A stretch of 64,000 nucleotides of DNA from a virus (Duplodnaviria; Heunggongvirae; Uroviricota; Caudoviricetes), in IMG/VR virus record IMGVR_UViG_3300010368_000011, positions 1 to 64,000 of that record; one strand, 5' to 3'. Below, piece by piece: positions 9,479 to 63,634 of the stretch. The notes beneath the pieces were generated by a model that saw nothing but the letters and a program-made list of their open reading frames with translations, was not told the origin of the DNA and made no database searches. The translations under genes and the position numbers were made by a program. Positions within the stretch are counted from its first letter, which is position 1. Each line of letters opens with the position of its first letter.

Positions 9479-10339
9479 CATACCACTACAGCTTTAACTG
9501 CCCTCGACTGAGGTTTGTGGTCTGGACTATACCTTCATCATATCAGTTCTCACTGACTTAGATGCTGCCCGTACAGTAAGTTACATACATACCTTATATT
9601 GCATGCATGGAATAACAAATGGTTTGACAATATCAATAAATTTTCTCGCCTGTGTAGTACCACACCGGATCGAAAATCTTCCTTTGTTCCGCTTAATAGT
9701 GAATTTCACATCATGTACTTCTTTAAAATAATCAACAATGACGTTGACTTCTTTTTCCGTAGATACACAACACGAAATTACAAGTTCATATGCATGAACC
9801 TTACCATTTCGCTTCTTGGGATATAGCGATCCATCATCCATATACCATATGGCTATAGCATGATGCGTAAACTTATTCAGTAGTTTACGTGTAAATTGCT
9901 TATATCCATCCTTATAACACCATTTCCGCAGTACACGAAAATAACGATGGGTCATAAAGAATCTGTTAAAGGTATTTGTATCATTACGAGACTTAACCCG
10001 ACTGATTGAAACACTTTTATTAAACAGATCACAAAGAATGTTCAGCTTATGGTTTAGATACTCAACTTGGGCATCACAATGACTAATCGCCAATTCAGGT
10101 TTTGCTGGCCGAATATGACCATCACCCATCACCATAGCACAAACAACCGATTTGTCTTTCTTCTCCATTTCTAATTCCCTTCCTCACACTAGGTGAGATA
10201 TATTTTGTAACTTACTCAGTCTCTACACCTTCAACTTTCTTTCGAAAGAAGCTTGGCTCGGGATTGCCATTTAAAAGGTTTCCCCGAATTTGAGCAGTTC
10301 TACTCCGATGGTTTCCCAAAGGGCACTCAATTTTACTAT
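9479..10339 (-). mobile_element. group I intron (tRNA-Leu UAA anticodon-loop type) carrying a LAGLIDADG homing endonuclease ORF
   Basis: 5' splice after U, 3' terminal G; core strings AAUUGAG..CUCAAAUUCGGGGAAACC..GGCAAUCCCGAGCCAAGC..GGUGUAGAGACUG and 3' GGGCAGUUAAAGCUGUAGUGGUAUG closely resemble the Anabaena pre-tRNA-Leu intron. Confidence 0.75.
9581..10168 (-). CDS. LAGLIDADG homing endonuclease (intron-encoded)
   Basis: two LAGLIDADG-type motifs (VMGDGHI and WYMDDGSL); ORF entirely inside the intron, GGAAGGGAAT RBS. Confidence 0.8.
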   Translation of the reverse strand: MEKKDKSVVCAMVMGDGHIRPAKPELAISHCDAQVEYLNHKLNILCDLFNKSVSISRVKSRNDTNTFNRFFMTHRYFRVLRKWCYKDGYKQFTRKLLNKFTHHAIAIWYMDDGSLYPKKRNGKVHAYELVISCCVSTEKEVNVIVDYFKEVHDVKFTIKRNKGRFSIRCGTTQARKFIDIVKPFVIPCMQYKVCM

Positions 10340-10906: not shown

Positions 10907-11449
10907 CTAGCGGGTGAACTGACCGCGCAAACCCTCAACATCAATAAATTCATTACATCCACGACGCAGTGAATCTGCTACCGCTTCTTTCGATGAAACG
11001 ACTGTAACACGAACATTGCGATTACGGAGTTCGGTGAGTAGTGGGGAAAGTTCGCCATCACCGGAAAACAGAACGATATGATCCACAGCCTTGTTACAGA
11101 CCATGGACATGACGTGAACTGAGATATCGGTAGAGACGTTGGATCGCAGACGCTTGGTCATGCCATCTTCATTATCACGGGTCGGTACGAGTTTGGTTTT
11201 AATGCGATACCCATTGTACGACAATAGATCGGTCAATGGCTTCACCGCAGAGAAACCCGAATCTTCAGCGGCTACTGGTGTGAAATAATCCAATTGGACA
11301 TTTTCACAAAGCTCATCAACGTGGTCCCGAAGTTTGAGGAAATCCAGTTGAACATCTTTGTTTTTCAACGTGGCAAACATATTTGCGCCGTCGAATACTA
11401 CCAGTGTCTTCCGATCTTGTACCAAATCGAAAATGTTATCTTGTTTCAT
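10907..11449 (-). CDS. NYN/LabA-like (PIN-fold) ribonuclease domain protein
   Basis: VVFDGANMF and IVLFSGDGELSP motifs typical of NYN/DUF88; ATG with AAGGAA RBS. Confidence 0.7.
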   Translation of the reverse strand: MKQDNIFDLVQDRKTLVVFDGANMFATLKNKDVQLDFLKLRDHVDELCENVQLDYFTPVAAEDSGFSAVKPLTDLLSYNGYRIKTKLVPTRDNEDGMTKRLRSNVSTDISVHVMSMVCNKAVDHIVLFSGDGELSPLLTELRNRNVRVTVVSSKEAVADSLRRGCNEFIDVEGLRGQFTR

Positions 11450-17350: not shown

Positions 17351-17602
17351 TTAGCTACTAACAAGTGCGAACACTTCTTGAATACGAGTGATTAACTCGC
17401 CCTCAATATCATCGAGGTCAGCGATATCAGATGCTGAAAAGTTGTCAGTATCATTTCGCATTTGTTCACGAAGTTCACTAAATCTAACTTTTCGTATAAT
17501 GACATCATTGATAATGTTTGAAGCACTTCTAGTAATTTCTTGCTTATGCTTCAACAGTTCTGCACCAACTTGTGATCTAACGCCGTCTCTTATAATGCTC
17601 AT
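17351..17602 (-). CDS. hypothetical protein (83 aa)
   Basis: ORF track, operon context. Confidence 0.45.
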   Translation of the reverse strand: MSIIRDGVRSQVGAELLKHKQEITRSASNIINDVIIRKVRFSELREQMRNDTDNFSASDIADLDDIEGELITRIQEVFALVSS

Positions 17603-20217: not shown

Positions 20218-20799
20218 ATGGAAACCAATATTGCAATAATCTGTAGAATGGCTGATTTGAATAATATGTCGGCTCCATTCCGCGTAGTGATTGAACCAAA
20301 TCCCACCGTAAAAAATCCACCAGTGATGTCACTGTGGCTTAATCGTGGTGATCTTACTGGTAGTTTTCACCATAAAGGTGATGTGTCTACATATTGGACT
20401 GCTCGGGTATCCAGAACCTATCTGTTGAATCAGGGGATTAAGTTGCACCATATTGCCAAACTCAAGACCCGTGCCGAAACCAGTATGGTGAACGAATGGT
20501 TGCATGTTCTGCGTGAAATTTCTTGCAGAGACGCATATCGCAAGTTTATACCAAACACTTGGCATAAAGGGCCACTTCAAAAATTGCTCTATGAAGTTGA
20601 AGATGAAGCCCTGTTGCGTTTCACCAAATCAAATCTGCGTGATATGAAGCGTCGGTTTGAAACTATTGGTAAACAGTTTGCGGCTTATCAAAAGGCGGCG
20701 ACTGATGAGGCCAAGGTGAAACAGCGCGAGGCTGCTCATGCGCAAATGGAAAAACGAAACCAAATCAGAGAGGAATTGAAACAAGGTCGATATTCTTGA
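20218..20799 (+). CDS. hypothetical protein (193 aa)
   Basis: ORF track. Confidence 0.5.
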   Translation: METNIAIICRMADLNNMSAPFRVVIEPNPTVKNPPVMSLWLNRGDLTGSFHHKGDVSTYWTARVSRTYLLNQGIKLHHIAKLKTRAETSMVNEWLHVLREISCRDAYRKFIPNTWHKGPLQKLLYEVEDEALLRFTKSNLRDMKRRFETIGKQFAAYQKAATDEAKVKQREAAHAQMEKRNQIREELKQGRYS

Positions 20800-21436
20800 T
20801 CGGAAAGTCCTTGTCTATCAATTCTTTCAAATCTGTGATCGTCATCGTGTAATCATCATCCGTTTTAAAGCGGAACAATGATGCATTGATATAAGTTTCG
20901 GTAAAACTTCCAGCTTCAACATCGATCAGATCAAACTTCACGGTTATGATCTGATCGTTGTCGTGTTTCATCATGGCATCCAGTAGTGCTTCACTGCATC
21001 CAGATCGAACACTCATCATGATACCTTGAAGATGATCATACTCGTGTTGAAAGATGCGAGCATCCATGTCTCTAAGAGTTTTCTCGACCGGTGACCCGTC
21101 AACGGTTTGATATTTCACATCGATTCGGTTAGGTCGCATGATATCATAAAGCACATTGTCTACGGATAGGCATCCTTCAATGAGTGATACCTTCTTTTTA
21201 CCACATGAAATGATTTCTGGATTACATACAGTATGAAATTCATATTTTGAATCACGATAGATGAAGACTTGTCGCAGTGATCCAATTTGAACAGCTGAAA
21301 TTCCAACCCCGTTTAACTCTGACATGGTTCGTAACAGTTGAGGAATCAAAAATTGTTCAAGCGTCGAGAAGTCAGTAACAGGTGACGACTTCTCGATTAA
21401 AACAGGATTCGGTGCTTTTTTAATTAACTGTTCCAT
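20765..21436 (-). CDS. def: peptide deformylase with ~85-aa C-terminal extension
   Basis: three PDF motifs GVGISAVQIG, EGCLS and QHEYDHLQG; start moved to ATG 21436 because the longer track ORF overlaps the divergent promoter/gene at 21455-21510. Confidence 0.8.
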   Translation of the reverse strand: MEQLIKKAPNPVLIEKSSPVTDFSTLEQFLIPQLLRTMSELNGVGISAVQIGSLRQVFIYRDSKYEFHTVCNPEIISCGKKKVSLIEGCLSVDNVLYDIMRPNRIDVKYQTVDGSPVEKTLRDMDARIFQHEYDHLQGIMMSVRSGCSEALLDAMMKHDNDQIITVKFDLIDVEAGSFTETYINASLFRFKTDDDYTMTITDLKELIDKDFPIKNIDLVSIPL

Positions 21437-21454
21437 GATCACTATATTTAACGG

Positions 21455-21483
21455 TTGACTTATTCTTATAACACGTTTATACA
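21455..21483 (+). promoter_or_regulatory. sigma70-like promoter (TTGACT-17-TATACA) followed by CAACGGGAGAG UTR box
   Basis: hexamers and spacing; member of repeated promoter-UTR cassette. Confidence 0.5.
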
Positions 21484-21509
21484 TAAAGTCAACAACGGGA
21501 GAGAAGATC

Positions 21510-21863
21510 ATGGCTAAGATTAATGCAACCATTTATTTCCTGACACGCGATTCTGATGAAATCAATCAGAACGGTTGGGAATGTGAAGCCGGTAAGAACT
21601 ATTGTGCGGCCCGGTTCGAGGGCGATATCACTCGTGGCGTCTATGAACCTGCGGCACGGATTGTTGCTGATGATCTTGATCCTGAAACCATTTGGGCGAT
21701 GACCCAAAATCTGGATACCCCTTGGTCTGATTTGGACCAGATCACGTGCATCACCGAATGCCCACGGTCCATGGATGTGTCCGATTATATCGTGTTCGAC
21801 CATGAGCCGAACGTTGCTTATGTTGTTGCCCCTGCTGGGTTCACCACCGTTACCTTGTACTAG
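21510..21863 (+). CDS. hypothetical protein (117 aa)
   Basis: ORF track; GGGAGAG RBS. Confidence 0.55.
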   Translation: MAKINATIYFLTRDSDEINQNGWECEAGKNYCAARFEGDITRGVYEPAARIVADDLDPETIWAMTQNLDTPWSDLDQITCITECPRSMDVSDYIVFDHEPNVAYVVAPAGFTTVTLY

Positions 21864-21871
21864 GAATTAAA

Positions 21872-22462
21872 ATGTTCACGCCTGTTTATATTGAAAACTT
21901 CCTGTCGCCGCCTGTGGCTGATGAAGTGTATCAAACTCTGATGACCGATCTGGATTGGGTCCACCGTGAGAATGTTCCTCGTAAGGAATATTGGGCAACC
22001 CTTAATAACCGTTCGTACACCTATGGCCGTGGCGTTGGAGTCAGAACCTATGATTCACAACCATCCCATGTGTACATTGAAGCGGTTCGTGACATGCTGG
22101 TGTCCATGAATGAAAAACATTCGTGGTCCGGTCGTTATGAAGGATGTTTCCTGAATCGTTATGATCATGGTCGCGACCAGCTTGGTTGGCATGCTGATGA
22201 TGATCCGGGTATTGATCATGATAATCCTATTGCTGTTGTTACCCTTGGTAATGCAAGAATGCTGCAATGGAAATTGATCAAGGACGCAGACGGTAATCCG
22301 GTCAAAGGGATGGATGCCATTAATGGTATCTTGCTGAAGCCGGGATCAGTCCTGTTTATGCCACCCGGTATGCAGGACGAATATTATCACAGGATTCCAA
22401 AGGCTGTTAGCCCGGAACCCGATGGTCCGAGAATTTCAATGACGTATCGGAGTTTGAAATGA
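21872..22462 (+). CDS. AlkB-like 2OG-Fe(II) oxygenase
   Basis: GWHADDD (HxD), later His in YYHRIP, C-terminal RISMTYR resembling AlkB RxxxTFR. Confidence 0.7.
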   Translation: MFTPVYIENFLSPPVADEVYQTLMTDLDWVHRENVPRKEYWATLNNRSYTYGRGVGVRTYDSQPSHVYIEAVRDMLVSMNEKHSWSGRYEGCFLNRYDHGRDQLGWHADDDPGIDHDNPIAVVTLGNARMLQWKLIKDADGNPVKGMDAINGILLKPGSVLFMPPGMQDEYYHRIPKAVSPEPDGPRISMTYRSLK

Positions 22463-22868: not shown

Positions 22869-22942
22869 AAACCGGTAGCTCAGTCTGGCAGAGCAGTGGA
22901 TTCTTACTCCATGTGCCGTGGGTTCAAATCCCACCCGGTTTA
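22869..22942 (+). tRNA. tRNA-Lys(CUU)
   Basis: cloverleaf: acceptor AAACCGG/CCGGTTT, anticodon stem GTGGA/TCCAT, loop TTCTTAC, T-arm GTGGGTTCAAATCCCAC, A73 + encoded CCA. Confidence 0.75.
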
Positions 22943-22978
22943 CCAACTTTATGAAATAGGAGATGACTTTATAATAAT

Positions 22979-23059
22979 GGACACGTTCCCGAGCGGTCAA
23001 AGGGAATTGGCTTTTAACCAATTGCGCAAGCTTCGTGGGTTCGAATCCCACCGTGTTCA
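22979..23059 (+). tRNA. class-II-shaped (Tyr-like scaffold) tRNA with apparent UUU anticodon
   Basis: acceptor GGACACG/CGTGTTC, D-arm TTCCCGAGCGGTCAAAGGGA as in bacterial tRNA-Tyr, perfect anticodon stem AATTGG/CCAATT with loop CUUUUAA, 12-nt variable region, canonical T-arm, A73-CCA. Confidence 0.5.
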
Positions 23060-23062
23060 CCA

Positions 23063-23671
23063 TTATCTTTCAAAGCGTTCAATTAATATTTGTAATCTAG
23101 CATAATTAGCGCCCTTAGCCGCCATATCTAAAGATTTGAGTGTTTGAAATATATTATCGTTTTTTAAATAAGCTGTATACATTTCTTTGTCGGTGTATCT
23201 ATTTTTATTACTTTGTTTGTTCCGTCCTCGCCACGTTGGGGTTATACTATGACAATTGGGACATATCATTTTAAGATTCGATCTATCGTTGTTATCTCTA
23301 TTACCATCAATGTGTTCTAATTCTAACGAAATAAAATGACCTTTCCATTCATCAATATAACAATCGTGGCATTTGTAATCTTGTTCATATAATAATCTTT
23401 CTCTAAGCATCTCATACTTCAGAGAGTTAAAGTCAAGGGACAATATATATTCTTTTCTTGGTGGCCTGATGCCTTTGGCGGTTTGTAGTCGAGTGATATC
23501 TTCATCTGATAACGTTCTACCTGTTGGTTTACCTTTTAATTTATCGCTAACCTTTTTGTTGATTTCTTCTCGTTTGTCCTTTGTAGAAGAACTTCTAGCG
23601 CAATGGCTGGAACAAAAACGGCCAGAGCCATATGTTCCGTCATGATCATTATTACATTTTTCGCAAGTCAA
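23063..23671 (-). CDS. HNH homing endonuclease (paralogue of 8867..9367)
   Basis: LEHIDGNRDNNDRSNLKMICPNCHS motif; TTG start with AGAGGA RBS. Confidence 0.75.
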   Translation of the reverse strand: MTCEKCNNDHDGTYGSGRFCSSHCARSSSTKDKREEINKKVSDKLKGKPTGRTLSDEDITRLQTAKGIRPPRKEYILSLDFNSLKYEMLRERLLYEQDYKCHDCYIDEWKGHFISLELEHIDGNRDNNDRSNLKMICPNCHSITPTWRGRNKQSNKNRYTDKEMYTAYLKNDNIFQTLKSLDMAAKGANYARLQILIERFER

Positions 23672-25677: not shown

Positions 25678-26119
25678 ATCTGTTGCTCGTATGCAGGTTG
25701 GCAAACAAATCCATGAGTTTTTGGGTGCTCCTATCTATTGGGCCGATTTTGATGAAGATCAAATCCTTGTTGCGATCAACCGTGGTGATGGAAAAATAAC
25801 TTCCGTGAAAAACACAGAATATAGAATGGAAGGTAATATTGTAGTCGGCGAAGAGCATTACGGGACCGTCACTATAGGCGTTGGTGAAGATCAACTGACT
25901 GTAACCCGTTTGATAAATATTGAATTACTTCGCGGTAAGAAGAAAAATGGAATTGGTACGAAGGTCGTAACATTATTAACCAACTGTACAAGTGATGGTG
26001 AATTAATAATAAACGATATCAAGAAATCGGCTAGACCGTTTTGGAATAAACTTGGTGCTGAATACTTTAAAGACGAAGGTCGTAATGATATGGTCAGTGC
26101 AAAAATTAAATTAGGATAA
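25652..26119 (+). CDS. GNAT-like acetyltransferase (155 aa), tentative
   Basis: trimmed to ATG with GGAAGAAAA RBS; RGKKKNGIGTKVV resembles GNAT motif A. Confidence 0.45.
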   Translation: MKLAQLIYESVARMQVGKQIHEFLGAPIYWADFDEDQILVAINRGDGKITSVKNTEYRMEGNIVVGEEHYGTVTIGVGEDQLTVTRLINIELLRGKKKNGIGTKVVTLLTNCTSDGELIINDIKKSARPFWNKLGAEYFKDEGRNDMVSAKIKLG

Positions 26120-26123
26120 CAAC

Positions 26124-26735
26124 ATGACCCATACATTAAAAGACAAATTAAAGACCATCATGGAAGTCAACGATGTTATGCTTCCTGAAATGAATGAGAC
26201 ATTGGTGCGGAGAATTACCAAAATCATTTCATCATTAGCTGATAGCATAAATGAAAAAAGCAAGATGAATGGTCATAAAACAAAATTTATTACCGCCGTT
26301 CCATTACAATATACAATCGATGGTGATATGGTTGGTGATGATGATGGTGAAAGACACAGAGTCCAGTGGGAAGAAGCTAGCCTTATTCTTAAGGTCGATT
26401 TCAAAAAATATTTCATGAAACGTAAGAATCGTGTTCAAGCGGATCATATCAGAGATGCAACTAAGGATTTTTTGAAGAAATTTGAACAAATAATTATTGC
26501 TAATTTACCAAATAGCACTAAGGTTGATTATTCTCATGCCGTTATTGAGCTGGATGCCGCCACTGATATGATAATTAATTATTCAGATTCAGACATTCCA
26601 CAAAAACTGGATAGGAATCATACCAATCATATAGGAAGCTCAATCATTACAATGACGTTTTCGTTCGTACCAAAGGGCGTAATGCGTGAACGTGAGAATG
26701 GCCTGAAGGCTAAAGAAGAAATCAGGGATTACTAA
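26124..26735 (+). CDS. hypothetical protein (203 aa)
   Basis: ORF track. Confidence 0.55.
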   Translation: MTHTLKDKLKTIMEVNDVMLPEMNETLVRRITKIISSLADSINEKSKMNGHKTKFITAVPLQYTIDGDMVGDDDGERHRVQWEEASLILKVDFKKYFMKRKNRVQADHIRDATKDFLKKFEQIIIANLPNSTKVDYSHAVIELDAATDMIINYSDSDIPQKLDRNHTNHIGSSIITMTFSFVPKGVMRERENGLKAKEEIRDY

Positions 26736-26752
26736 TCAATAGGGAAACAGAA

Positions 26753-27001
26753 ATGGTTGAACTAACAATTTGTTTAATTTCGGGTAAAGAAATTACGTTT
26801 TCGTTTGATGAAGACGGCATGGCACGCGATGCACTCGGTAGTATCGCTATGGTTGGCTTCTGTGCGAAGCACGAAAACGGTGAAAATCAGTTCGTTGCAG
26901 CGAATATGATTAAAAATATTCGCATGGGAAACCTAACGTTTCCAAAGACTTTGCTACCAACGACCGAAGAAATTATCACTCAAGCTGAATTAATTTCATA
27001 A
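26753..27001 (+). CDS. hypothetical protein (82 aa)
   Basis: ORF track. Confidence 0.5.
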   Translation: MVELTICLISGKEITFSFDEDGMARDALGSIAMVGFCAKHENGENQFVAANMIKNIRMGNLTFPKTLLPTTEEIITQAELIS

Positions 27002-27143
27002 TAGGGGTTGCAAACATTATCTGGAACCCCTAAGTATCTGTGTATGGGAGCTGCCAAGCTGTTCTGCCTCATGCGGGAGTTGTCCGAATAGGATAGTTCC
27101 CGCACCAATGCTCCGGTGATCTTAATAGGATTATCGGGGCACC

Positions 27144-27177
27144 AATGAAAGCCCTCGGTTAATAGCCGGGGGCTTTC
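27144..27177. repeat. 34-nt hairpin element AATGAAAGCCCTCGGTTAATAGCCGGGGGCTTTC (copy 1 of 2; copy 2 at 44703..44736)
   Basis: exact 34-nt identity between the two loci; 12-bp stem with 7-nt loop. Confidence 0.6.
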
Positions 27178-27192
27178 TCCATTTATGCTGTA

Positions 27193-27221
27193 TTGACAAC
27201 TGTTTTCGAATACAGTATACA
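27193..27221 (+). promoter_or_regulatory. sigma70-like promoter (TTGACA-17-TATACA) for Thg1-like gene
   Basis: hexamers and spacing. Confidence 0.5.
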
Positions 27222-27249
27222 TTGGTTTGGTTTTGAATGAGGGAATGAT

Positions 27250-28044
27250 ATGTCACCGGACCTTGGCAATCGTATGAAGAATTACGAAGCGTTTGAAACG
27301 TGTCGTAGAGTTGATGGTTCTCGTCCGGTGTATGTTCGGCTTGATGGTCGCTCCTTCTCCACCTTCACCAGTGGCATGACGAAGCCGTTCGATCAACGGA
27401 TGACCGAAGCCATGAATGAAACCACCAAGTACATGGTGCAAAAAACCAATTCCGTTATCGGTTATGTTCAATCAGATGAAATCAGTTTGATGATCACACC
27501 GACAACCGATACATCTCAATTGATGTTTGGTGGCAAAGTTCATAAAATGGTTAGCGTTTTTGCATCCATGGCCACGGCGAAACTCAACGCGTGTATTCGT
27601 GGGTGGGATGGGTATGAAGATCGCCTGCCCTGCTTTGACGCCCGTGTGATGAACCTGCCTGACCGTATGGAAGCGGTGAACATGCTTCGTTGGCGTTATA
27701 TGGATTGCACTCGTAATGCTATTCAATCAATCGCCCAGTCTATGTTCGATCATGGTGAACTACAGGGCATACAAACGGTTGATCTTATTGAGAAAATCCG
27801 AATGGCGGGTGTTGATCCATATTCATTCCCAAGTCGCAGCATGTATGGATCGTTCGTGCGTAGTGAAAAAGAATATAAATCATTAACGCCAGCTGAGTTG
27901 GCCCATATTCCAGAACACAAGCGCCCAACTGGTCCGTTTTTGCGTAGCGTGCTTAAGGTATACTCGACTGATATGTTTATACAACTGGTCAATCCGGTTG
28001 AAGTGATTTTTGATAATGCGGTTCCTATAATCAATAAAAGTTGA
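27250..28044 (+). CDS. Thg1-like protein (tRNA-His guanylyltransferase / 3'-5' nucleotidyltransferase family)
   Basis: N-terminal NYEAFE...VYVRLDGRSFSTF, GYVQSDEIS, FGGKVHKMVSVFASMATAKLN, CFDARV...LRWRYMDCTRNA track the conserved Thg1/TLP blocks; GAGGGA RBS. Confidence 0.7.
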   Translation: MSPDLGNRMKNYEAFETCRRVDGSRPVYVRLDGRSFSTFTSGMTKPFDQRMTEAMNETTKYMVQKTNSVIGYVQSDEISLMITPTTDTSQLMFGGKVHKMVSVFASMATAKLNACIRGWDGYEDRLPCFDARVMNLPDRMEAVNMLRWRYMDCTRNAIQSIAQSMFDHGELQGIQTVDLIEKIRMAGVDPYSFPSRSMYGSFVRSEKEYKSLTPAELAHIPEHKRPTGPFLRSVLKVYSTDMFIQLVNPVEVIFDNAVPIINKS

Positions 28045-28095
28045 CAAGTACTTTGTAACCTGATAGTCTGTACAAGAATTGAAAAGGGTGATGTT

Positions 28096-28419
28096 ATGAC
28101 TGATACGTTTTGGACTGGTCGTCGTGCAGAAGACGTTGCTGTTGCTAATAGCTTCGTTCCGATTACTGGTGCGACCCCTGTTACCGTGGTTGAAGAGTTT
28201 CGGACTTTCCAAAATGCGTATTACCGTTTCTATAATGATGGTGATCTTCCCAACTATCGCGCGATGACCCGTTTGGGCAAGGTTGTTTCTGTGGAATATG
28301 ACACCAGCCGCCGCGAACAATCTCTTGAGAATATTGGTGATGCCCTTCTTACGCGTGTCCTGACCGCCAAGAAGAACGGCACCATTGATCAAATTCCAAC
28401 CACACCGTTGGCACAATGA
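28096..28419 (+). CDS. hypothetical protein (107 aa)
   Basis: ORF track; promoter-like TTGACA at 28041. Confidence 0.5.
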   Translation: MTDTFWTGRRAEDVAVANSFVPITGATPVTVVEEFRTFQNAYYRFYNDGDLPNYRAMTRLGKVVSVEYDTSRREQSLENIGDALLTRVLTAKKNGTIDQIPTTPLAQ

Positions 28420-28934
28420 AACCTGTTCCACAACTTTCGGCAGAAGATCAAGTACGGGTAATGCCGGAACCGTTTTATGTTGGTTCGCCTCATAGCACGA
28501 TGGTGATGTTCGTTCTTTCGACAGAAGGTGAATTCGCACCAATTTTGCGTGATGGTTGTCGTCGCTTGGGTCGGTTCATCTTGCCACCGTTTCAACGGCC
28601 ACCAGTATGGACACAGGCACAACAAATCGCGTTGCTTGAAAGTATTTGGTTGGAGTTGCCTATTGGTTCGTTTGTTTATAACGCAAGCAACGATATGGAT
28701 GACGAATGTGATCAGTGGCTTATCGATGGCCAGCAACGAATCACAGCACTTCTTGCTTATGTCGCTGATGCGTTTCCGGTGTTTGGTTATCGGTATTCTG
28801 AACTCAGTGTTGTTGAGAAGCGTGGATTTTCTATGAAATCATTTCCATGCATCGAAACAAAAGACCAAAATCGTTGCGATCTGGAAAACATCTATAACCG
28901 GTTGGCATATGGCGGAACCCCGCATTCTCAATGA
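28416..28934 (+). CDS. DUF262 / ParB-like nuclease-domain protein
   Basis: LPPFQRPPVW...IDGQQRITAL pattern; GC-richer block. Confidence 0.55.
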   Translation: MKPVPQLSAEDQVRVMPEPFYVGSPHSTMVMFVLSTEGEFAPILRDGCRRLGRFILPPFQRPPVWTQAQQIALLESIWLELPIGSFVYNASNDMDDECDQWLIDGQQRITALLAYVADAFPVFGYRYSELSVVEKRGFSMKSFPCIETKDQNRCDLENIYNRLAYGGTPHSQ

Positions 28935-28942
28935 GGTTTAAT

Positions 28943-29155
28943 ATGAGTCGAATTACAATGATCATCGGAGCCGTCGCGGCTGTTCTGATCGTGGCCTTGG
29001 CTGCTTTTGTAGGCACATGGCTTTCGTTAGCTATGGGTGAATGGATTTCATCTATCGCAGACAAGACGACCATAGCGCTTTGGGTTGCACTCTTTATGGG
29101 TGTTATAACTGCTATCGCGGCGGTGTTCCATTTGACTGTTTGGCGTCGATACTGA
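28943..29155 (+). CDS. small membrane protein (70 aa, two TM helices)
   Basis: trimmed to ATG after GAGGT RBS. Confidence 0.45.
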   Translation: MSRITMIIGAVAAVLIVALAAFVGTWLSLAMGEWISSIADKTTIALWVALFMGVITAIAAVFHLTVWRRY

Positions 29156-29164
29156 ATTATAAGA

Positions 29165-29353
29165 ATGGCGGAACCGATCAGACCAAATATTTCGATAGTA
29201 TTTCGGGGCGATATACGGCACATTCCTCAATGGCGGCAATTCATTCGTACCAAAGACGCCATATATGAACTTGAAAGTGTTGCCCGAGAGGGTAAGCGTC
29301 AGGATAAAATGGTTCGGGCAATATATGTATTCAACACGGAGATTGTGTTATGA
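29165..29353 (+). CDS. hypothetical small protein (62 aa)
   Basis: ORF track. Confidence 0.35.
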   Translation: MAEPIRPNISIVFRGDIRHIPQWRQFIRTKDAIYELESVAREGKRQDKMVRAIYVFNTEIVL

Positions 29354-29835
29354 AAAATGTGATTATACAGGAACAAGAATGTAATTGGCAGGATGATGGT
29401 GGTATGCACGATGCATATTGCCGAGTTATTTCGGATGACGAGTTCGATAAGCTTGTTGCGATTGAACAAGCTTATCAAGGTAAACACTGGTCAGATGATC
29501 ATGAAGTGACTGCTGATGAATATCGCTTTATCAATAGTCTGTCTAATCATCCAGAATTTAAATTTCCGGCGCAAGTCGATGGTCTTTTTCTGTTCTATTG
29601 GAATGAAGATACCGTTGGTGATGATGAAGAAGATGAAGAAGATGAAGATGCTTCTCCTAAAACCGTAGTATCTGTTTCTCAAGCACTTGGTGGTCATGAA
29701 ACACCAGAGGATTGGCTTCGGTCGCTTCCTCGGGTGGCAAAACTCCCACCGTATCTTCAGGAGAAAATGGATCGAGATGCTGAAATCGTCGCCAAACTCA
29801 ATGCAAACAGAAGTAAGAATTTCGGTTTTGAATAA
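29350..29835 (+). CDS. hypothetical acidic protein (161 aa)
   Basis: ORF track; DDEEDEEDED tract. Confidence 0.5.
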   Translation: MKNVIIQEQECNWQDDGGMHDAYCRVISDDEFDKLVAIEQAYQGKHWSDDHEVTADEYRFINSLSNHPEFKFPAQVDGLFLFYWNEDTVGDDEEDEEDEDASPKTVVSVSQALGGHETPEDWLRSLPRVAKLPPYLQEKMDRDAEIVAKLNANRSKNFGFE

Positions 29836-29881
29836 TTAATCGTATGGCTTTGTCATATTGTGTATTAAAAGGATTCATTGT

Positions 29882-30229
29882 ATGACAAAACCACCCTATG
29901 TTCATAAAACTCCGACAAGACCAGTTACACGAGCCATGGCGGCTGATTACATTATTGATTTAGAACCCAAATCGTTTTGGTATCGTCTACGTGATCGTTT
30001 TGGTAAATGGTCTGACAATACATCACATATGGTTGATGAGGGATGTGTCAGTTATCCCGAATATAAGTCATGGTTTCATAAGACTCTTAATAAATTAATT
30101 CTTTCGCCTATTCTCAAATTTGCTGAAAGACGATCTGCAACAAGATTTGAAACACAGATTTTAGAAGTATTAGCAACAGAAATAGCAAAAGAGATGGATG
30201 CAGAGATGATGCGCATCCTCGAAAAATGA
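29882..30229 (+). CDS. hypothetical protein (115 aa)
   Basis: trimmed to ATG after AAGGA RBS. Confidence 0.45.
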   Translation: MTKPPYVHKTPTRPVTRAMAADYIIDLEPKSFWYRLRDRFGKWSDNTSHMVDEGCVSYPEYKSWFHKTLNKLILSPILKFAERRSATRFETQILEVLATEIAKEMDAEMMRILEK

Positions 30230-30256
30230 TATTTCGCTTCGGTTTGGTTCGTTTTG

Positions 30257-30264
30257 TATAAATA
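30257..30264 (+). promoter_or_regulatory. T4-late-like TATAAATA box
   Basis: exact TATAAATA 27 nt upstream of ATG 30292. Confidence 0.4.
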
Positions 30265-30291
30265 AGAACGAATATAAATTCGGAGCGAACC

Positions 30292-30963
30292 ATGTCATCT
30301 TATATTACCCCTCAGATATTAAACTCAATCCTTCGTGAAGGTGCTGATGAGCCGGAAGTTGACATCGCCAAATGGGCTGAAAATTGGTGCAGAGATTTTG
30401 AGAGCGCTGTTCCCGATGTTGTTCGTGCAGCGCCAAGAAATAAAGGTATAGTTCGTAGAGCTATGGATTGGTGCAAAAAACATTTGGGCCTCTTAAATGA
30501 AGGATTGTTAACTGAAGAATCCTTCATGGATAAAGCAAGATCATTCTTGGTTGGTGTATTAAAGTTCCCAGAGATGGTATTAAAACTGTTTGATATTGCT
30601 TTTAACCTTGCTACCTTCTTATTCCGTCACATGGCTGGTTATAAAGAAGGTAAGAAGGCGCAAGAGCTTAAAACTGTTCTCACATTCTTCACCGGCCTTG
30701 GCGGCGCGCGTGGCACCCTTACGCAAGGGTTGGGCACCGCCACCTTGACCGTGTTTGCAAAAACATTAGGAGTACTTATGTTGCTTGGTGCGTGCCAAGC
30801 TATTCTTGGTGGTAAACTAGATACAGCTGGTCCGGTTAGAAAACTTCGCCAATGGTTAAACGCGGGGCGTGAAAACCCGAATGATATTGAAGTTACTAGC
30901 GCTGGTGCTAAAGTTGATGAATCTGCTGCGGCTCGTAAAACCCCTATTAATAGAAAAATCTAG
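30292..30963 (+). CDS. hypothetical protein (223 aa)
   Basis: ORF track. Confidence 0.55.
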   Translation: MSSYITPQILNSILREGADEPEVDIAKWAENWCRDFESAVPDVVRAAPRNKGIVRRAMDWCKKHLGLLNEGLLTEESFMDKARSFLVGVLKFPEMVLKLFDIAFNLATFLFRHMAGYKEGKKAQELKTVLTFFTGLGGARGTLTQGLGTATLTVFAKTLGVLMLLGACQAILGGKLDTAGPVRKLRQWLNAGRENPNDIEVTSAGAKVDESAAARKTPINRKI

Positions 30964-31035
30964 AATAAAACCAGTTGACCGCTTCATATAATTGATTTAT
31001 GATCTTGTTGAATTAGTTTTCAGGAAGATCATATA

Positions 31036-31467
31036 ATGTCATTGCAACATCTTAAAGACGAAGCTCTAAAGGCTCGTAAAGAAAAGAACAAAGCCCGTGC
31101 TGATGTGCTGGTAACCATGTTGTCTGATGTCAATATGGCTGGCAAGAATGAGCAACGTGAAGCAACTGATGCCGATGTAGCTATTATTGCTAAACGCTTC
31201 ATGAAGAACCTTGAGAAGACCAAGGCGCTACGTTCGTCACCAGAACTTCTTGAAGAAATCAGTGTTGTTCAGGAATTCATGCCAAAGGTGGCGTCGGCAC
31301 TAAGTCTTGATGATGCTATCGTTAAGGTCTTGACAGAACATTCTGACAAGATTAAAAAAGAAAATATCGGTTTCCTTGTTGGCCAAGTTATGAGAGCCTG
31401 TCAGGGAAAAGCCAACCCGAAAACCGCGAATGAAATGATTACTGCAAAAATTTCAGAAGCCGGTTGA
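31036..31467 (+). CDS. GatB/YqeY-domain protein (YqeY-like, 143 aa)
   Basis: architecture and C-terminal IGFLVGQVMRACQGKANPKTANEMI match the YqeY signature G.vMk...GkAd...v..lv; N-terminal MSLQHLKDEALKARK resembles B. subtilis YqeY start. Confidence 0.65.
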   Translation: MSLQHLKDEALKARKEKNKARADVLVTMLSDVNMAGKNEQREATDADVAIIAKRFMKNLEKTKALRSSPELLEEISVVQEFMPKVASALSLDDAIVKVLTEHSDKIKKENIGFLVGQVMRACQGKANPKTANEMITAKISEAG

Positions 31468-31492
31468 CAACAAGTTGGTTTTATCCTATAAG
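31464..31492 (+). promoter_or_regulatory. strong sigma70-like promoter (TTGACA-17-TATAAG) ahead of tRNA cluster
   Basis: hexamers and spacing. Confidence 0.55.
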
Positions 31493-31536
31493 TAATAATG
31501 TTGGGTGAATGATTCGCCCTCAAAGGAATTAGAATT

Positions 31537-31602
31537 ATGACTATGCGTTTTGAACATCGCGAATTTGATATTATCGAAAAGCCCGGAGGCTTGCGCGACT
31601 AG
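31537..31602 (+). CDS. 21-codon mini-ORF (MTMRFEHREFDIIEKPGGLRD) between promoter and terminator; may instead be a small RNA
   Basis: AAAGGAATT RBS, ATG, TAG; followed by terminator. Confidence 0.25.
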   Translation: MTMRFEHREFDIIEKPGGLRD

Positions 31603-31629
31603 ATACGTATGTGTCATATGTCAAACAAA

Positions 31630-31660
31630 CCCTCCCGGTGAAAATCGTGGAGGGTTTTTT
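31630..31660 (+). terminator. rho-independent terminator
   Basis: CCCTCC-loop-GGAGGG followed by TTTTTTG. Confidence 0.65.
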
Positions 31661-31690
31661 GTATTTGGAAGAAGGAAATAAAACAGAATT

Positions 31691-31762
31691 TGGACGTGTA
31701 ACTCAGTGGTAGAGTGGTTGTTTGAAGCACAGCAGGTCGGGAGTTCGATTCTCTCTGCGTCC
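31691..31762 (+). tRNA. tRNA-Phe(GAA)
   Basis: acceptor GGACGTG/TGCGTCC, anticodon stem GTTGT/ACAGC loop TTGAAGC, T-arm GGGAGTTCGATTCTCTC, A73, encoded CCA. Confidence 0.8.
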
Positions 31763-31901
31763 ACCAAATTTAGACGGCCCAAGAGGTAGCGACAAACCAT
31801 GCTATCGGAAGTTCTGGGTGTACATCAGGTTCGGATTGTCCGATTAAGTCCGAAATAATGGTCTGAACATCAAAGGTGTCGTGGCCGTCTAAAACATTAT
31901 T

Positions 31902-31975
31902 GGTTCCGTAGCTCAATTGGCTAGAGCAATGCGTTGTCTGCGCGAAGGTTGAGGGTTCGAGTCCCTTCGGAATCG
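31902..31975 (+). tRNA. tRNA-Asp(GUC) (anticodon-arm pairing imperfect)
   Basis: acceptor GGTTCCG/CGGAATC, D-arm GCTCAATTGGCTAGAGC, loop TTGTCTG, T-arm GAGGGTTCGAGTCCCTT, G73-CCA. Confidence 0.6.
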
Positions 31976-31983
31976 CCAATAAT

Positions 31984-32055
31984 AGTAGCATAACTCAGTG
32001 GAAGAGTTCTGACCTGATAAGTCAGCGGTCGTTGGTTCGAATCCAACTGCTACTA
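31984..32055 (+). tRNA. tRNA-Ile(GAU)
   Basis: acceptor AGTAGCA/TGCTACT, anticodon stem CTGAC/GTCAG loop CTGATAA, T-arm GTTGGTTCGAATCCAAC, A73-CCA. Confidence 0.8.
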
Positions 32056-32088
32056 CCAAAATAATCTCTAACGAGATTTACATAGCAT

Positions 32089-32161
32089 GATCCAGTCGTC
32101 TAATGGCTTAGGACGTTACCTTTTCACGGTGAAAATGCCAGTTCGATTCTGGTCTGGATTG
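32089..32161 (+). tRNA. tRNA-Glu(UUC)
   Basis: acceptor GATCCAG/CTGGATT, D-arm GTCTAATGGCTTAGGAC (Glu-like), anticodon stem TTACC/GGTGA loop TTTTCAC, T-arm GCCAGTTCGATTCTGGT, G73-CCA. Confidence 0.75.
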
Positions 32162-32188
32162 CCAAAAATAAAAAGAAGAGATAAGAAA

Positions 32189-32416
32189 ATGAAAACTTTT
32201 AATCAATGTAGACTAAGAAAAGAAAATAGTATTGTAGTTTCGTGGATTCCTTCGACGTTCGCCAAGGTCGGTAAGATCGTTGGACTGAAAGAAGGTGATA
32301 CATGGAATGAAGGATGGAAAGTTCTATCTGTTGGTGGTGCTATGACTGAACAACGTCTAAAGGAACAAGAACATCGTATTAGAAGTGGTGCACATCGCGC
32401 CGGGTCTGATATCTAA
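32189..32416 (+). CDS. hypothetical small protein (75 aa) inside tRNA array
   Basis: track ORF trimmed to ATG after AAGAAGAGATAAG; upstream part overlapped tRNA-Glu. Confidence 0.45.
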   Translation: MKTFNQCRLRKENSIVVSWIPSTFAKVGKIVGLKEGDTWNEGWKVLSVGGAMTEQRLKEQEHRIRSGAHRAGSDI

Positions 32417-32423
32417 ACGGTTT

Positions 32424-32496
32424 GCTCCGTTAGCTCAGCGGAAGAGCACCGGTTTACGAAACCGGGTTGTCGGGAGTTCGATTCTCTCACGGAGTA
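32424..32496 (+). tRNA. tRNA-Arg(ACG)
   Basis: acceptor GCTCCGT/ACGGAGT, anticodon stem CCGGT/ACCGG loop TTACGAA, T-arm GGGAGTTCGATTCTCTC, A73-CCA. Confidence 0.75.
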
Positions 32497-32651
32497 CCAA
32501 GTTTGAGGCGGAAGTGTAAAAGAATCTTAATCGTGTCGATTGTACAAAGCACACGAGGTCCGGTTCCCAAGACATGATCATGTTGTTGGTATGATTGACC
32601 GTAACGAAGTCGGGTGAAAATCCCACCGTCTCAGCCAAAACGGAGTACCAT

Positions 32652-32722
32652 TCTAGCGAAGTGTTGTGGCTGCACGCTTGATTGTGGATCAAGAAGATCG
32701 GGTTCGAGTCCCGGCGTTAGGA
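32652..32722 (+). tRNA. tRNA-His(GUG), no genomically encoded G-1 (position -1 is T), A73
   Basis: acceptor TCTAGCG/CGTTAGG, D-arm GTGTTGTGGCTGCAC, anticodon stem CTTGA/TCAAG loop TTGTGGA, T-arm TCGGGTTCGAGTCCCGG, A then CCA. Confidence 0.65.
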
Positions 32723-32731
32723 CCAAATAAA

Positions 32732-32804
32732 GTCTTCGTAGCTTAATGGATAGAGCGGTTGAATTCGAATCAATCAGGTGGGAGTTCGAGTCTCTCCGAG
32801 GACA
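32732..32804 (+). tRNA. tRNA-Arg(UCG)
   Basis: acceptor GTCTTCG/CGAGGAC, D-arm GCTTAATGGATAGAGC, anticodon stem GTTGA/TCAAT loop ATTCGAA, T-arm GGGAGTTCGAGTCTCTC, A73-CCA. Confidence 0.7.
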
Positions 32805-32807
32805 CCA

Positions 32808-33344
32808 TTACGGCGCGATTGTTTCTAATCTAGAATATTCAAGATTATAACAGTCGCACCCGACTTTCCAATTATTTGAAGGATCAATGCTACCCTTTTT
32901 TAAAAAGGTGGCATCCCTCATATAATCTTCCTTCATATACAAACCCATTATATATGCTTTCTCAAATAAATTGTTTTTTGATTTATTACGCAATACTGAT
33001 ACAAACATATAAACATCACATTTTTGTGTAATGTTGTAGTTTGATATGGAAGCTTCATAATTCAAACGCGGTGGAACAGTTCTATCTTTCGTTTTGATAT
33101 CAATTTTGATGCCATCATATTCAAAATCATAATCAAACGTATTACTATGGTTCCAGTATGGATACACTTGTTTTATTGCAAGTTCGCCTATTGAACCTAT
33201 CAGTGTTCCCTCGCCTTTTCTTAAAGAATGCCTGTCATTGCTCTTGATGCTGGCCACTTCTTCTGAATGTACATTAGCTTGGGTAATCATTTCGGGCGTT
33301 ATATCAACCTCAATGATTCCATTATCGTGTAACTTATGTGCCAT
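32808..33344 (-). CDS. hypothetical protein (178 aa), possible PD-(D/E)XK-type nuclease
   Basis: ORF track; E...D...IDIKTK arrangement is only suggestive. Confidence 0.45.
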   Translation of the reverse strand: MAHKLHDNGIIEVDITPEMITQANVHSEEVASIKSNDRHSLRKGEGTLIGSIGELAIKQVYPYWNHSNTFDYDFEYDGIKIDIKTKDRTVPPRLNYEASISNYNITQKCDVYMFVSVLRNKSKNNLFEKAYIMGLYMKEDYMRDATFLKKGSIDPSNNWKVGCDCYNLEYSRLETIAP

Positions 33345-61826: not shown

Positions 61827-63035
61827 ATGCCTACTAGTAAACATCTGTTTCAAAATTACGCTTATGAATTGCGGGGATTTGATGGTAGTGGCCAAAAGCT
61901 ACCATCAGTTCCCCGTCCTAATTTTACGTTCTTTGTTGAATTCGGTTTCAATCCAGAAGGTTCAGAGTCAGCAAGCAATCTGAACAACCTATTAAACAAA
62001 GGTAATTCAATACTGGTGAAATCATTCACCAAACCCGGCTTCTCGTTTGATACTGAAAAGCTTCGATCATACAACAAACCATACATCCTGAAAAAGAAAA
62101 TAGAATACTCCGATGTCAGTCTTACTTTGTATGATGATAGTCGATCATCTGTACGATATATGATTGAAGAGTATAGACGCCATTATAATAATCATGGTGG
62201 ACCTTCTACCAATACCGGTAACGAAGTTGATTTTTCGCGTACTACAGGAACTTTTAATAATGAAACCCCATTGGTGCGATCACACGATGCTACCGATGAT
62301 GCCACCCAATCAATGGGTTTGAGACTTCACGATAATTCCAAATCTCGTTTCTTTGATTATATCAAACTATATGACATGGGTACTGATGCGAATGCAGTAC
62401 AGGTTCATACAATATATAACCCAATATTCAAGAGTATTGAAAATGTATCTCTTGATTATACTGATGATGGTGTTCAAGAAGTCGGTATAACAATTGAATA
62501 TACTTATTTCGATAGTTCTGTATTCAATGATTCTGGTGAATTACATAAGAATGATGGATTGTTCCAGAACCAATTAAACAAGTCGGTCATCGAAGATCAT
62601 CGATTAGTGAATTACAATCCCGATAAGATCAGCGGTCTAGATGATTTACTCCCTAGCAGTGTTAGTGATTTCCTAAATGGTATTGGTGTTACTCCGGGTG
62701 AATTGATCCAAGCTGTTCAAAATTCTATTCAGGGTGGAGAATTAAATCTATCTGATCTACGTAGAAACCTGTTTGAAACTGTTGCAGCAGGTACACCTAT
62801 TCAGAACATCAGACTGGTCATTCAAAATATTAGATTGGTTGAGCAAGCATTATCTCAAGGTAGGTTCACTGATATATTACCATTGATTGGTGAAGCCGGT
62901 GCACAATTCAAAAACTTGAAGAACTTTGATCCGTTTGGTTCGGGTGAAGTCATCAAGGATGTACAAAAAACAATCACATCAGATGTAGGCAATGTTGGAA
63001 CGTGGTTATCCCGTCATTCTAACCCGACTGTGTGA
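61827..63035 (+). CDS. tube-associated/baseplate tube protein (gp48/gp54-like?), 402 aa
   Basis: N-terminus LRGFDGSGQKLPSVPRPNFTFFVEFGFN has tube-family flavour; adjacent to gp19-like gene. Confidence 0.3.
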   Translation: MPTSKHLFQNYAYELRGFDGSGQKLPSVPRPNFTFFVEFGFNPEGSESASNLNNLLNKGNSILVKSFTKPGFSFDTEKLRSYNKPYILKKKIEYSDVSLTLYDDSRSSVRYMIEEYRRHYNNHGGPSTNTGNEVDFSRTTGTFNNETPLVRSHDATDDATQSMGLRLHDNSKSRFFDYIKLYDMGTDANAVQVHTIYNPIFKSIENVSLDYTDDGVQEVGITIEYTYFDSSVFNDSGELHKNDGLFQNQLNKSVIEDHRLVNYNPDKISGLDDLLPSSVSDFLNGIGVTPGELIQAVQNSIQGGELNLSDLRRNLFETVAAGTPIQNIRLVIQNIRLVEQALSQGRFTDILPLIGEAGAQFKNLKNFDPFGSGEVIKDVQKTITSDVGNVGTWLSRHSNPTV

Positions 63036-63634
63036 CCATGGCCGGTCGTCCAAAAAGAACAAACTATACACCACGAAACCCTAGCAAATATAGAGGGACA
63101 TATCCCATCACGCTTAGATCAAGTTGGGAAGTCTCTTTTGCGCAAAAGTGTGACCTTACTCCTACTATTCTGGAATGGGCATCAGAACCAATCGAAATAC
63201 CATATAGAAATCCGCTGAAACAAAAGCAGTCGATTTATATACCGGACTTCATGATCAAGGCGGTGAACACTCAGGGTATTGTTGAAACAAAGCTAATTGA
63301 AATTAAACCAGCAAAAGAAGCATTAGCCGAAAAGGCTGTTAGTGAATATGACAAAATGAGCCTAATGGTTAATCAAGCCAAATGGTTAGCTGCTTCTGCA
63401 TGGTGTGCCAGACGCGGTATCAAATTTGTTGTGCTTACTAATGAGGGTATGTTCGTTAATACTGCGCCGTCTAAGATGAGTAAACCGAAGAAGCCGGGCA
63501 AAATTGGTACTATCAAAAAGAAGAAACCGATCAAAGCCAAAAAGGGCGGTGCCGGTCACAAACATGTGGCAAACGGCATGCGTGTTAGAAAATCACCCAA
63601 AACACGAGCAATAGCTAAAGCGAAAAAAGCTTAA
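63032..63634 (+). CDS. hypothetical protein (200 aa), possible PD-(D/E)XK nuclease core with Lys-rich DNA-binding tail
   Basis: IPDF...ETKLIEIKP arrangement; KKPGKIGTIKKKKPIKAKK tail. Confidence 0.4.
   Translation: MTMAGRPKRTNYTPRNPSKYRGTYPITLRSSWEVSFAQKCDLTPTILEWASEPIEIPYRNPLKQKQSIYIPDFMIKAVNTQGIVETKLIEIKPAKEALAEKAVSEYDKMSLMVNQAKWLAASAWCARRGIKFVVLTNEGMFVNTAPSKMSKPKKPGKIGTIKKKKPIKAKKGGAGHKHVANGMRVRKSPKTRAIAKAKKA

Follow-up and report, generated by a model that had tools for sequence, protein, structure and literature searches.

A 64,000-nucleotide stretch of phage DNA (positions 1 to 64,000 of IMG/VR virus record IMGVR_UViG_3300010368_000011, Caudoviricetes; hereafter the window) carries a gene for a 264-amino-acid protein of the tRNA-His guanylyltransferase (Thg1) family, together with a tRNA-His(GUG) gene that has no encoded G at position −1 (G-1). 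The original prediction read the two as a self-contained maturation or repair module, in which the phage supplies both a G-1-less tRNA-His and the enzyme able to add G-1 or mend tRNA 5′ ends, and regarded this as undescribed in phages. Our analysis bears out both genes, places the protein in a phage family that already has a published record, and favours general mending of tRNA 5′ ends over a function dedicated to tRNA-His.

The Thg1-like gene and the histidine tRNA

The open reading frame (ORF) begins at an ATG with a Shine-Dalgarno-like GAGGGA 7 nt 5′ of it, and its translation contains every conserved block from which Thg1 membership had been predicted (VRLDGRSF, GYVQSDEIS, KMVSVFAS, FDARV and WRYMDC). 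Two Pfam models had been proposed for checking that assignment: PF04446 (Thg1) matched amino acids (aa) 7–137 (E = 7.2e-29; 100.8 bits versus a cutoff of 29.2), and PF14413 did not match. No NCBIfam model matched either, and PHROG 4717, annotated 'tRNA-His guanylyltransferase', covered aa 3–241 (E = 9.9e-72). Among proteins of solved structure, the Thg1-like protein (TLP) of Bacillus thuringiensis (BtTLP; 4KGK) was the best sequence match by far (E = 1.3e-33, aa 4–184); human Thg1 matched at E = 3.5e-9, and human, yeast and Candida Thg1 together with archaeal TLP spanned 1e-8 to 1e-9. An AlphaFold model built with 27 homologues as input had a mean predicted local distance difference test score (pLDDT) of 90.3. 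Its best Foldseek matches were likewise BtTLP chains (4kgm/4kgk; target-normalised template-modelling (TM) score 0.82–0.88, root-mean-square deviation 1.4–2.8 Å), compared with a TM score of ~0.7 and deviations of 5–7 Å for eukaryotic Thg1 structures, and the first 32 matches in the Protein Data Bank ranking were Thg1 or TLP structures without exception.

The metal-binding carboxylates D32 (in VRLDGRSF) and D76–E77 (in QSDEIS) aligned with BtTLP and human D29, D76 and E77, and were unchanged across the 27 homologues. In eukaryotic Thg1, residue H154 of the HINNLYN motif stacks on G36 of the anticodon (PMC6471195). The corresponding segment is CTRNAIQ in the window protein, with one N in common with HINNLYN, and ASKNSIS in BtTLP. 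By sequence and modelled fold, the window protein is confidently assigned to the Thg1 family, and it is a bacterial-type TLP and not a eukaryotic-type Thg1, because it lies closer to BtTLP in both respects and lacks the anticodon-reading HINNLYN motif.

ARAGORN called the tRNA gene as tRNA-His(GTG), Infernal recovered it with Rfam RF00005 (32652–32722; 44.4 bits versus a gathering score of 29), and its minimum free energy (MFE) fold is the cloverleaf. The acceptor end has T at −1 (32651), U1·G72, C2-G71, U3-A70 and A73 (32722), followed by an encoded CCA (32723–32725), so that the predicted combination of T at −1, A73 and no encoded G-1 stood up to inspection of the sequence. Elsewhere the tRNA has G37 and a 7-nt D loop, and within 32659–32672 the residues A8, U14 and U21 replace the near-universal U8, A14 and A21; A8/U14 looks like a compensated swap of the 8–14 tertiary pair, and the tRNA-His of Phaeobacter phage MD18, discussed below, likewise has A8.

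Among the 15 tRNA genes of the window, −1 is T in 12, position 73 is A in 9 and CCA is encoded in all. Because T at −1 and A73 are common in this set, a potential U-1:A73 pair is nothing special to tRNA-His, and a special 8-bp acceptor stem closed by that pair was rejected, both residues being generic among the tRNAs of this phage. RNase P would be expected to cut tRNA-His at +1, as in the other window tRNAs. TLP-dependent 5′ editing of mismatched tRNAs, in the style of amoebozoan mitochondria, was rejected for the seven tRNAs of the cluster that contains tRNA-His (Table 1), whose Rfam alignments have G·U wobbles but no mismatches at pairs 1–3. The 1:72 pair is standard or wobble in all 15 window tRNAs, and pairs 2–3 were checked in this cluster only.

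Table 1. Positions of the features discussed in the window
Feature	Coordinates	Strand	Evidence or context
Bacterial-type Thg1-like protein (TLP) of 264 aa; predicted 3′-5′ templated nucleotidyl transferase on tRNA 5′ ends	27250..28044	+	ORF, PF04446, PHROG 4717, BtTLP match, AlphaFold/Foldseek
tRNA-His(GUG), including encoded CCA	32652..32725	+	ARAGORN; Rfam; sequence; cloverleaf MFE
tRNA cluster (Phe, Asp, Ile, Glu, Arg-ACG, His, Arg-UCG); candidate TLP substrates, with host tRNAs	31692..32807	+	ARAGORN, Rfam; syntenic in sister phage L004
Two tRNA-Lys genes (CUU, UUU), upstream of TLP; further possible substrates	22869..23062	+	ARAGORN
tRNA-Lys(UUU) of this pair, 84 nt	22979..23062	+	
HNH-like ORF	23063..23671	−	Opposite strand to tRNA-Lys(UUU)
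YqeY/GatB-domain protein, directly upstream of tRNA cluster	31036..31467	+	PF09424/PF02637 E 1e-9; PHROG 1460; 45% identical to L004 homologue
DUF262/GmrSD_N-only small protein	28416..28934	+	Two genes downstream of TLP
Peptide deformylase	20765..21532	−	Upstream of tRNA-Lys pair
AlkB-like 2OG-Fe(II) oxygenase	21872..22462	+	Upstream of tRNA-Lys pair
NYN-domain predicted ribonuclease	10907..11449	−	PF01936 E 1e-20
LAGLIDADG endonuclease	9581..10168	−	
HNH/homing endonuclease, 580 aa	52757..54499	+	Directly after tail sheath gene
TnsA-like endonuclease	63032..63634	+	After tail tube gene

Phage TLPs and phage histidine tRNAs compared

The supposition that such a gene was new to phages did not survive comparison. 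By tblastn, TLP homologues turned up in 164 phage records of GenBank, and tRNA-His guanylyltransferase was the annotation given to most of those listed. Among the hosts are Bacillus (46 records), Prevotella (15), Caulobacter (13), Mycobacterium (11), Brevundimonas, Erwinia, Vibrio and Xanthomonas. Relatives also occur on at least 587 IMG/VR contigs, and 904 clusters of a large protein database matched the window TLP at E < 1e-10. The gene has been noted in papers since 2013, the year of the report on Bc431v3 (gp143), and is on record for Atu_ph07 (gp227; PMC6102473) and, in two copies, for XacN1 (ORF126/585, noted in the paper on that phage); a 2021 comparative review of jumbo phages counts Thg1 among the tRNA-repair functions that restore 5′ nucleotides.

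The best GenBank phage matches to the window TLP reached at most 47% identity (47% for CcrPW and CcrColossus of Caulobacter, 45% for phages of Brevundimonas). Further close homologues came from Ruegeria and Phaeobacter phages and from Bradyrhizobium, Mesorhizobium, Enterovirga and Hyphomonadaceae records, and most genera of these nearest homologues fall in orders listed as G-1-less (PMC3064791). A small lineage comprises the window protein and three metagenomic proteins (P0002–P0004; 52–57% identity). A single-protein scan of IMG/VR yielded no further member; a scan of metagenome contigs with the lineage alignment (A2), the patterns of which were non-specific, gave no relative above 49% identity among the matches listed; and a DNA pattern search based on tRNA-Arg returned the sister phage described below and nothing else. 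Among named 'bacterial' TLPs, the closest (48% identity) is that of Mesorhizobium sp. CAU 1741 (L255, JBDOQP010000003.1, 6001–6804), which sits in phage-like surroundings, with a phage integrase 0.5 kb downstream, PDDEXK, AAA_24 and DUF968 genes upstream, and recombination genes nearby. No tRNA array appears in the annotation of this 12.8-kb locus (no tRNA scan was made). Its gene content points to an apparent prophage, and many of the TLPs taken as 'cellular' in this clade may in fact belong to phages.

In the sister phage L004 (a 335-kb contig), a TLP of 52% identity and the tRNA cluster are both syntenic with those of the window. The L004 TLP is flanked by Rnl1-type and Rnl2-type RNA ligases, a tRNA-repair context, and other TLP relatives adjoin RNA ligase and CCA-adding enzyme genes; no homologue of either L004 ligase was present in the window. 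The L004 tRNA-His (17515–17590) has G1·U72, C2-G71, C3-G70, G73 and an encoded CCA. It can be drawn with an 8-bp acceptor and a 4-bp T stem, or as 7/5 with one U·C mismatch, and the 5′ ends given by Rfam and ARAGORN differ by one base. We surveyed a radius of 10 kb around TLP in 79 loci, each 15 kb or longer and drawn from IMG/VR and metagenomes. A tRNA of any kind accompanied TLP in 21 and tRNA-His in 3; two of these three (L053 and L062) are canonical, with encoded G-1 and C73, and the third is that of L004. Local linkage of TLP to tRNA-His is weak and inconsistent, and no tRNA-His was found in the 84 kb around and after the TLP of CcrColossus.

Blastn with the window tRNA-His returned short, chance-level matches only; with the tRNA-His genes of L004 and of Ochrobactrum phage vB_OspM_OC (hereafter OC) as queries, it gave OC, MD18 and Sinorhizobium phage Phosso as leads. 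An alignment (A3) of eight phage tRNA-His genes separated two classes. Class I is canonical (G at −1, G1-C72, C73 and A37) and contains Phosso, L053 and L062. Class II is G-1-less, with a wobble 1:72 pair, a residue other than C at 73 and mostly G37, and contains the window (U1·G72, A73), OC (U1·G72, A73, with pairs 1–3 matching those of the window), Atu_ph07 (T at −1, G1·U72, A73), MD18 (G1·U72, U73) and L004 (G1·U72, G73). Atu_ph07 and MD18 also encode TLPs.

One alphaproteobacterial clade has a tRNA-His with G1-U72 and A73 but no G-1, and a divergent histidyl-tRNA synthetase (HisRS) that reads the anticodon and U72; adding G-1 to such a tRNA lowers kcat/KM 5-fold (PMC3064791). Atu_ph07, MD18 and OC infect Rhizobiales and Rhodobacterales of this G-1-independent clade (PMC3064791), and the G-1-less class of phage tRNA-His appears to track the HisRS type of the host. 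Recurrence of the exact window acceptor end in an Ochrobactrum phage argues, at the level of sequence, for a functional variant used in such hosts.

Three of these phages offered observations of their own. Phosso (PV764938.1, L251) has a canonical tRNA-His (3693–3771; encoded G-1, C73 and CCA) though its host comes from the G-1-less clade, and a 196-aa coding sequence annotated 'histidyl-tRNA synthetase' (4044–4634) lies ~275 nt downstream; the two may be a phage-borne orthogonal pair of HisRS fragment and tRNA-His. The window contains no comparable HisRS-like ORF. In MD18 (MT270409.1, L249; for example 3696–3771), ARAGORN found 26 tRNA genes in 10 kb versus ~20 annotated, those absent from the GenBank annotation including tRNA-His, Ala, Asn, two Ser and two Arg. 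In OC (L250, tRNA-His at 2994–3068), as in L004 and the window, the tRNA cluster has a YqeY/'Glu-tRNA amidotransferase'-like gene just upstream.

Probable templated 5′-end repair and the competing explanations

BtTLP adds nucleotides under Watson-Crick templating. With C73 its kcat/KM for G-1 exceeds that with A73 by ~50-fold, U-1 is added ~40-fold over G-1 on an A73 substrate, and kcat/KM for N-1 addition is ~100–230 on A73 versus 5500 M-1s-1 on C73 (PMC3061083). The enzyme favours 5′-truncated tRNAs 5–160-fold over −1 addition and is not tRNA-His-specific, repairing tRNA-Phe equally well (PMC3061083). Its G-1 addition opposite C73 is as efficient as that of yeast Thg1, and it weakly complements a yeast thg1 deletion, putting U-1 or, weakly, G-1 opposite A73; untemplated G-1 opposite A73 is to date a eukaryotic property (PMC3061083). 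Every characterised TLP recognises tRNA shape, and a non-tRNA role has been proposed for DdiTLP4 (PMC6471195).

We regard it as probable, though by no means assured, that the window TLP is a general templated tRNA 5′-end repair enzyme within the translation toolkit of a jumbo phage, and that the tRNA-His is of a G-1-independent type. By extrapolation from BtTLP, the enzyme would activate the tRNA 5′-monophosphate using ATP or GTP and would then add Watson-Crick-templated nucleotides read off the 3′ strand of the acceptor stem, and 5′-truncated tRNAs of whatever specificity could be restored; a preference for such truncated substrates would be expected from BtTLP and MaTLP. It would work in a translation-maintenance set with the 15 tRNA genes, a peptide deformylase and the YqeY-like protein, and phage and host tRNAs might in this way be kept intact through infection. 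Of the two activities originally proposed, repair comes out as the most likely, whereas G-1 addition on A73 poorly fits a bacterial-type TLP without HINNLYN, and the protein is probably not specialised for adding G-1. The window tRNA-His probably needs no −1 nucleotide, because class II occurs in phages whose alphaproteobacterial hosts have a divergent HisRS that recognises the anticodon and position 72, not G-1.

Several points weigh against this reading. We are aware of no natural process by which tRNA 5′ ends become truncated in phage infection, and our literature search found no biochemistry paper on any phage TLP. The window phage and L004 each retain a TLP and a non-canonical tRNA-His ~5–7 kb apart, and this co-retention could reflect a functional link. 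By its sequence, the window tRNA-His resembles the alphaproteobacterial class but is not a strict member: alphaproteobacterial tRNA-His has G1·U72, C3-G70 and a 9-nt D loop with U20a, whereas the window gene has U1·G72, U3-A70 and a 7-nt D loop without U20a, and U72C costs 91-fold in the Caulobacter system (PMC3064791). The structural genes give no consistent host signal, the sheath being nearest to Phosso, Atu_ph07 and PA5oct and the neck to GAP32 and CBB. Neither Pfam searches nor comparison with L004 found an RNA ligase, polynucleotide kinase or CCA-adding gene within the window.

A self-contained identity module would have RNase P leave tRNA-His at U1 and TLP add a −1 residue, either an untemplated G or a U templated by A73, thereby providing the 5′ phosphate/nucleotide for a canonical host HisRS. 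The tRNA itself (no G at −1 in the gene, A at 73) suits this idea, as do the syntenic retention in L004 of a TLP and a tRNA-His without G-1:C73 and the ability of BtTLP to place U-1, weakly G-1, on A73-tRNA-His and to rescue yeast thg1 weakly (PMC3061083). Yet the protein is of TLP type without the anticodon-reading HINNLYN, N-1 addition on A73 is the poorest reaction of BtTLP (PMC3061083), and the equivalent pairing occurs in Atu_ph07 and MD18, the hosts of which do not use G-1, so that TLP there cannot be needed for G-1 identity; TLPs also accompany canonical G-1/C73 tRNA-His (L053, L062) and occur in an apparent prophage without an annotated tRNA array. With TLPs beside canonical tRNA-His in some loci and G-1-less pairs in G-1-independent hosts in others, the two genes, real as both are, need not be a maturation module, and we consider such a module unlikely. 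That the U1·G72/A73 tRNA-His of the window and OC is a phage-specific identity variant, chargeable only after TLP adds −1 (U templated by A73, or untemplated G), is a long shot; if true, the phage would have a histidine tRNA of its own, gated by an enzyme, and this would be the first case of a bacterial-type TLP making a physiological −1 addition. We give hardly any credence to the idea that the tRNA-His gene is decaying or non-functional and its odd acceptor end meaningless: it has the lowest Rfam score of its cluster, unusual residues at 8, 14 and 21, two G·U pairs in the acceptor stem and a folding z-score that is not significant, but the cloverleaf is complete, the T loop and anticodon loop are canonical, CCA is encoded, A8/U14 compensates the loss of U8–A14, and an unrelated Ochrobactrum phage has the U1·G72/C2-G71/U3-A70/A73 end too.

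The TLP could also act in quality control of a canonical host tRNA-His, restoring G-1 opposite C73 after its loss to RNase P or an exonuclease, in which case the phage tRNA-His would be unrelated. This draws on the efficiency of G-1 addition opposite C73 by BtTLP, on par with yeast Thg1 (PMC3061083), and on the presence of TLPs in phages of Bacillus, Erwinia, Vibrio and Xanthomonas, hosts expected to have canonical tRNA-His; it is distinctly unlikely here, given that the nearest relatives come from phages or prophages of hosts without G-1 or C73 on tRNA-His, that BtTLP still prefers +1 repair over −1 addition (PMC3061083), and that in a canonical host the phage A73 tRNA-His would be a poor HisRS substrate, making its retention odd. 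Very unlikely, in our judgement, is a substrate other than tRNA acceptor ends, with TLP extending or capping other RNAs of phage or host at their 5′ ends, or serving in anti-defence without any link to tRNA. No in vivo substrate is established for bacterial TLPs, DdiTLP4 has a proposed role of this kind (PMC6471195), and the immediate neighbours of the window gene are uncharacterised ORFs and a DUF262/GmrSD_N protein; on the other side stand the recognition of tRNA shape by all characterised TLPs (PMC6471195), the position of the gene between two tRNA clusters, and relatives that adjoin RNA ligase and CCA-adding genes.

As it stands, the finding changes little, adding a divergent member to a catalogued phage gene family. 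A well-conserved jumbo-phage TLP would nevertheless be a reasonable test case, both for the biochemistry of phage TLPs and for what truncates tRNA 5′ ends in infection, host defence being one candidate, and tRNA-His class could be a marker for host prediction. The annotation 'tRNA-His guanylyltransferase' is probably misleading for phages of hosts that do not use G-1.

Genome context and relation to known systems

Judged by its gene content, the window is part of a jumbo myovirus, because it combines T4-type tail and neck genes (tail sheath, tail tube, and gp13 and gp15 homologues) with a tRNA array, and because the large protein database lists an identical TLP from a 317-kb metagenomic contig. 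Its GC content is ~41%. Protein identity to the supergroup of RaK2, PA5oct, Atu_ph07, Phosso and GAP32 is distant (~32–36%), and megablast of 26000–33000 against GenBank phages found no DNA-level relative. The TLP gene lies in a conserved block; the small DUF262/GmrSD_N protein downstream of it is kept in loci L001 and L004, and its 48% identical counterpart in CcrColossus, gp265, lies 19 kb upstream of the TLP of that phage. A promoter-like TTGACA-17-TATACA picked by eye upstream of TLP is not claimed; it fails the rule of the promoter scanner.

The peptide deformylase gene has an equivalent place in L001 and L004. The tRNA-Lys(UUU) gene abuts the HNH-like ORF and has a variable region of ~12 nt, unusual for tRNA-Lys, and its tRNA-Lys(CUU) neighbour is normal. 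The NYN domain, found in a predicted ribonuclease of the window, is the nuclease fold of protein-only RNase P enzymes. Mobile endonucleases of LAGLIDADG, HNH/homing and TnsA-like types are also present (Table 1).

Set against known systems, the window TLP has its catalytic carboxylates in common with BtTLP (4KGK/4KGM), HINNLYN is replaced in both, and the two align at 31–38% identity in Foldseek; unlike BtTLP, the window protein, ~35% identical to it, is phage-encoded, and its C-terminal third (aa 185–264) does not align by sequence. With eukaryotic Thg1 (yeast, human and C. albicans) it has the superfamily, palm fold and two-metal active site in common, but it has no HINNLYN/H154 for the GUG anticodon and is more distant in sequence and fold. 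The tRNA-His departs from canonical bacterial tRNA-His, which has an encoded G-1:C73, in its T at −1 and A73. It is more like the G-1-less tRNA-His/HisRS system of Caulobacter crescentus (Yuan et al. 2011), with no G-1, A73, G37 and a wobble 1:72 pair, and the nearest TLP homologues come from phages and prophages of that alphaproteobacterial clade. The tRNA-His of OC (MT028491.1, 141575–141649) has the same U1·G72, C2-G71, U3-A70, A73 and encoded CCA, and its GUGU/GCAC D stem and UUGUGGA anticodon loop are those of the window; OC is an unrelated Kyanoviridae phage, with C instead of T at −1. Within the PHROG 4717 family (Atu_ph07 gp227, CcrColossus gp300, Bc431v3 gp143 and XacN1 ORF126/585), profile membership and a tRNA-rich jumbo-phage setting are common ground, as is the co-occurrence of TLP and G-1-less tRNA-His in Atu_ph07 and MD18. 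The window differs in a TLP at most 47% identical to GenBank phage proteins and in the reversed wobble (U1·G72) of its tRNA-His. The window TLP is a divergent addition to an already annotated phage gene family, and its pairing with a G-1-less tRNA-His pre-exists in published genomes.

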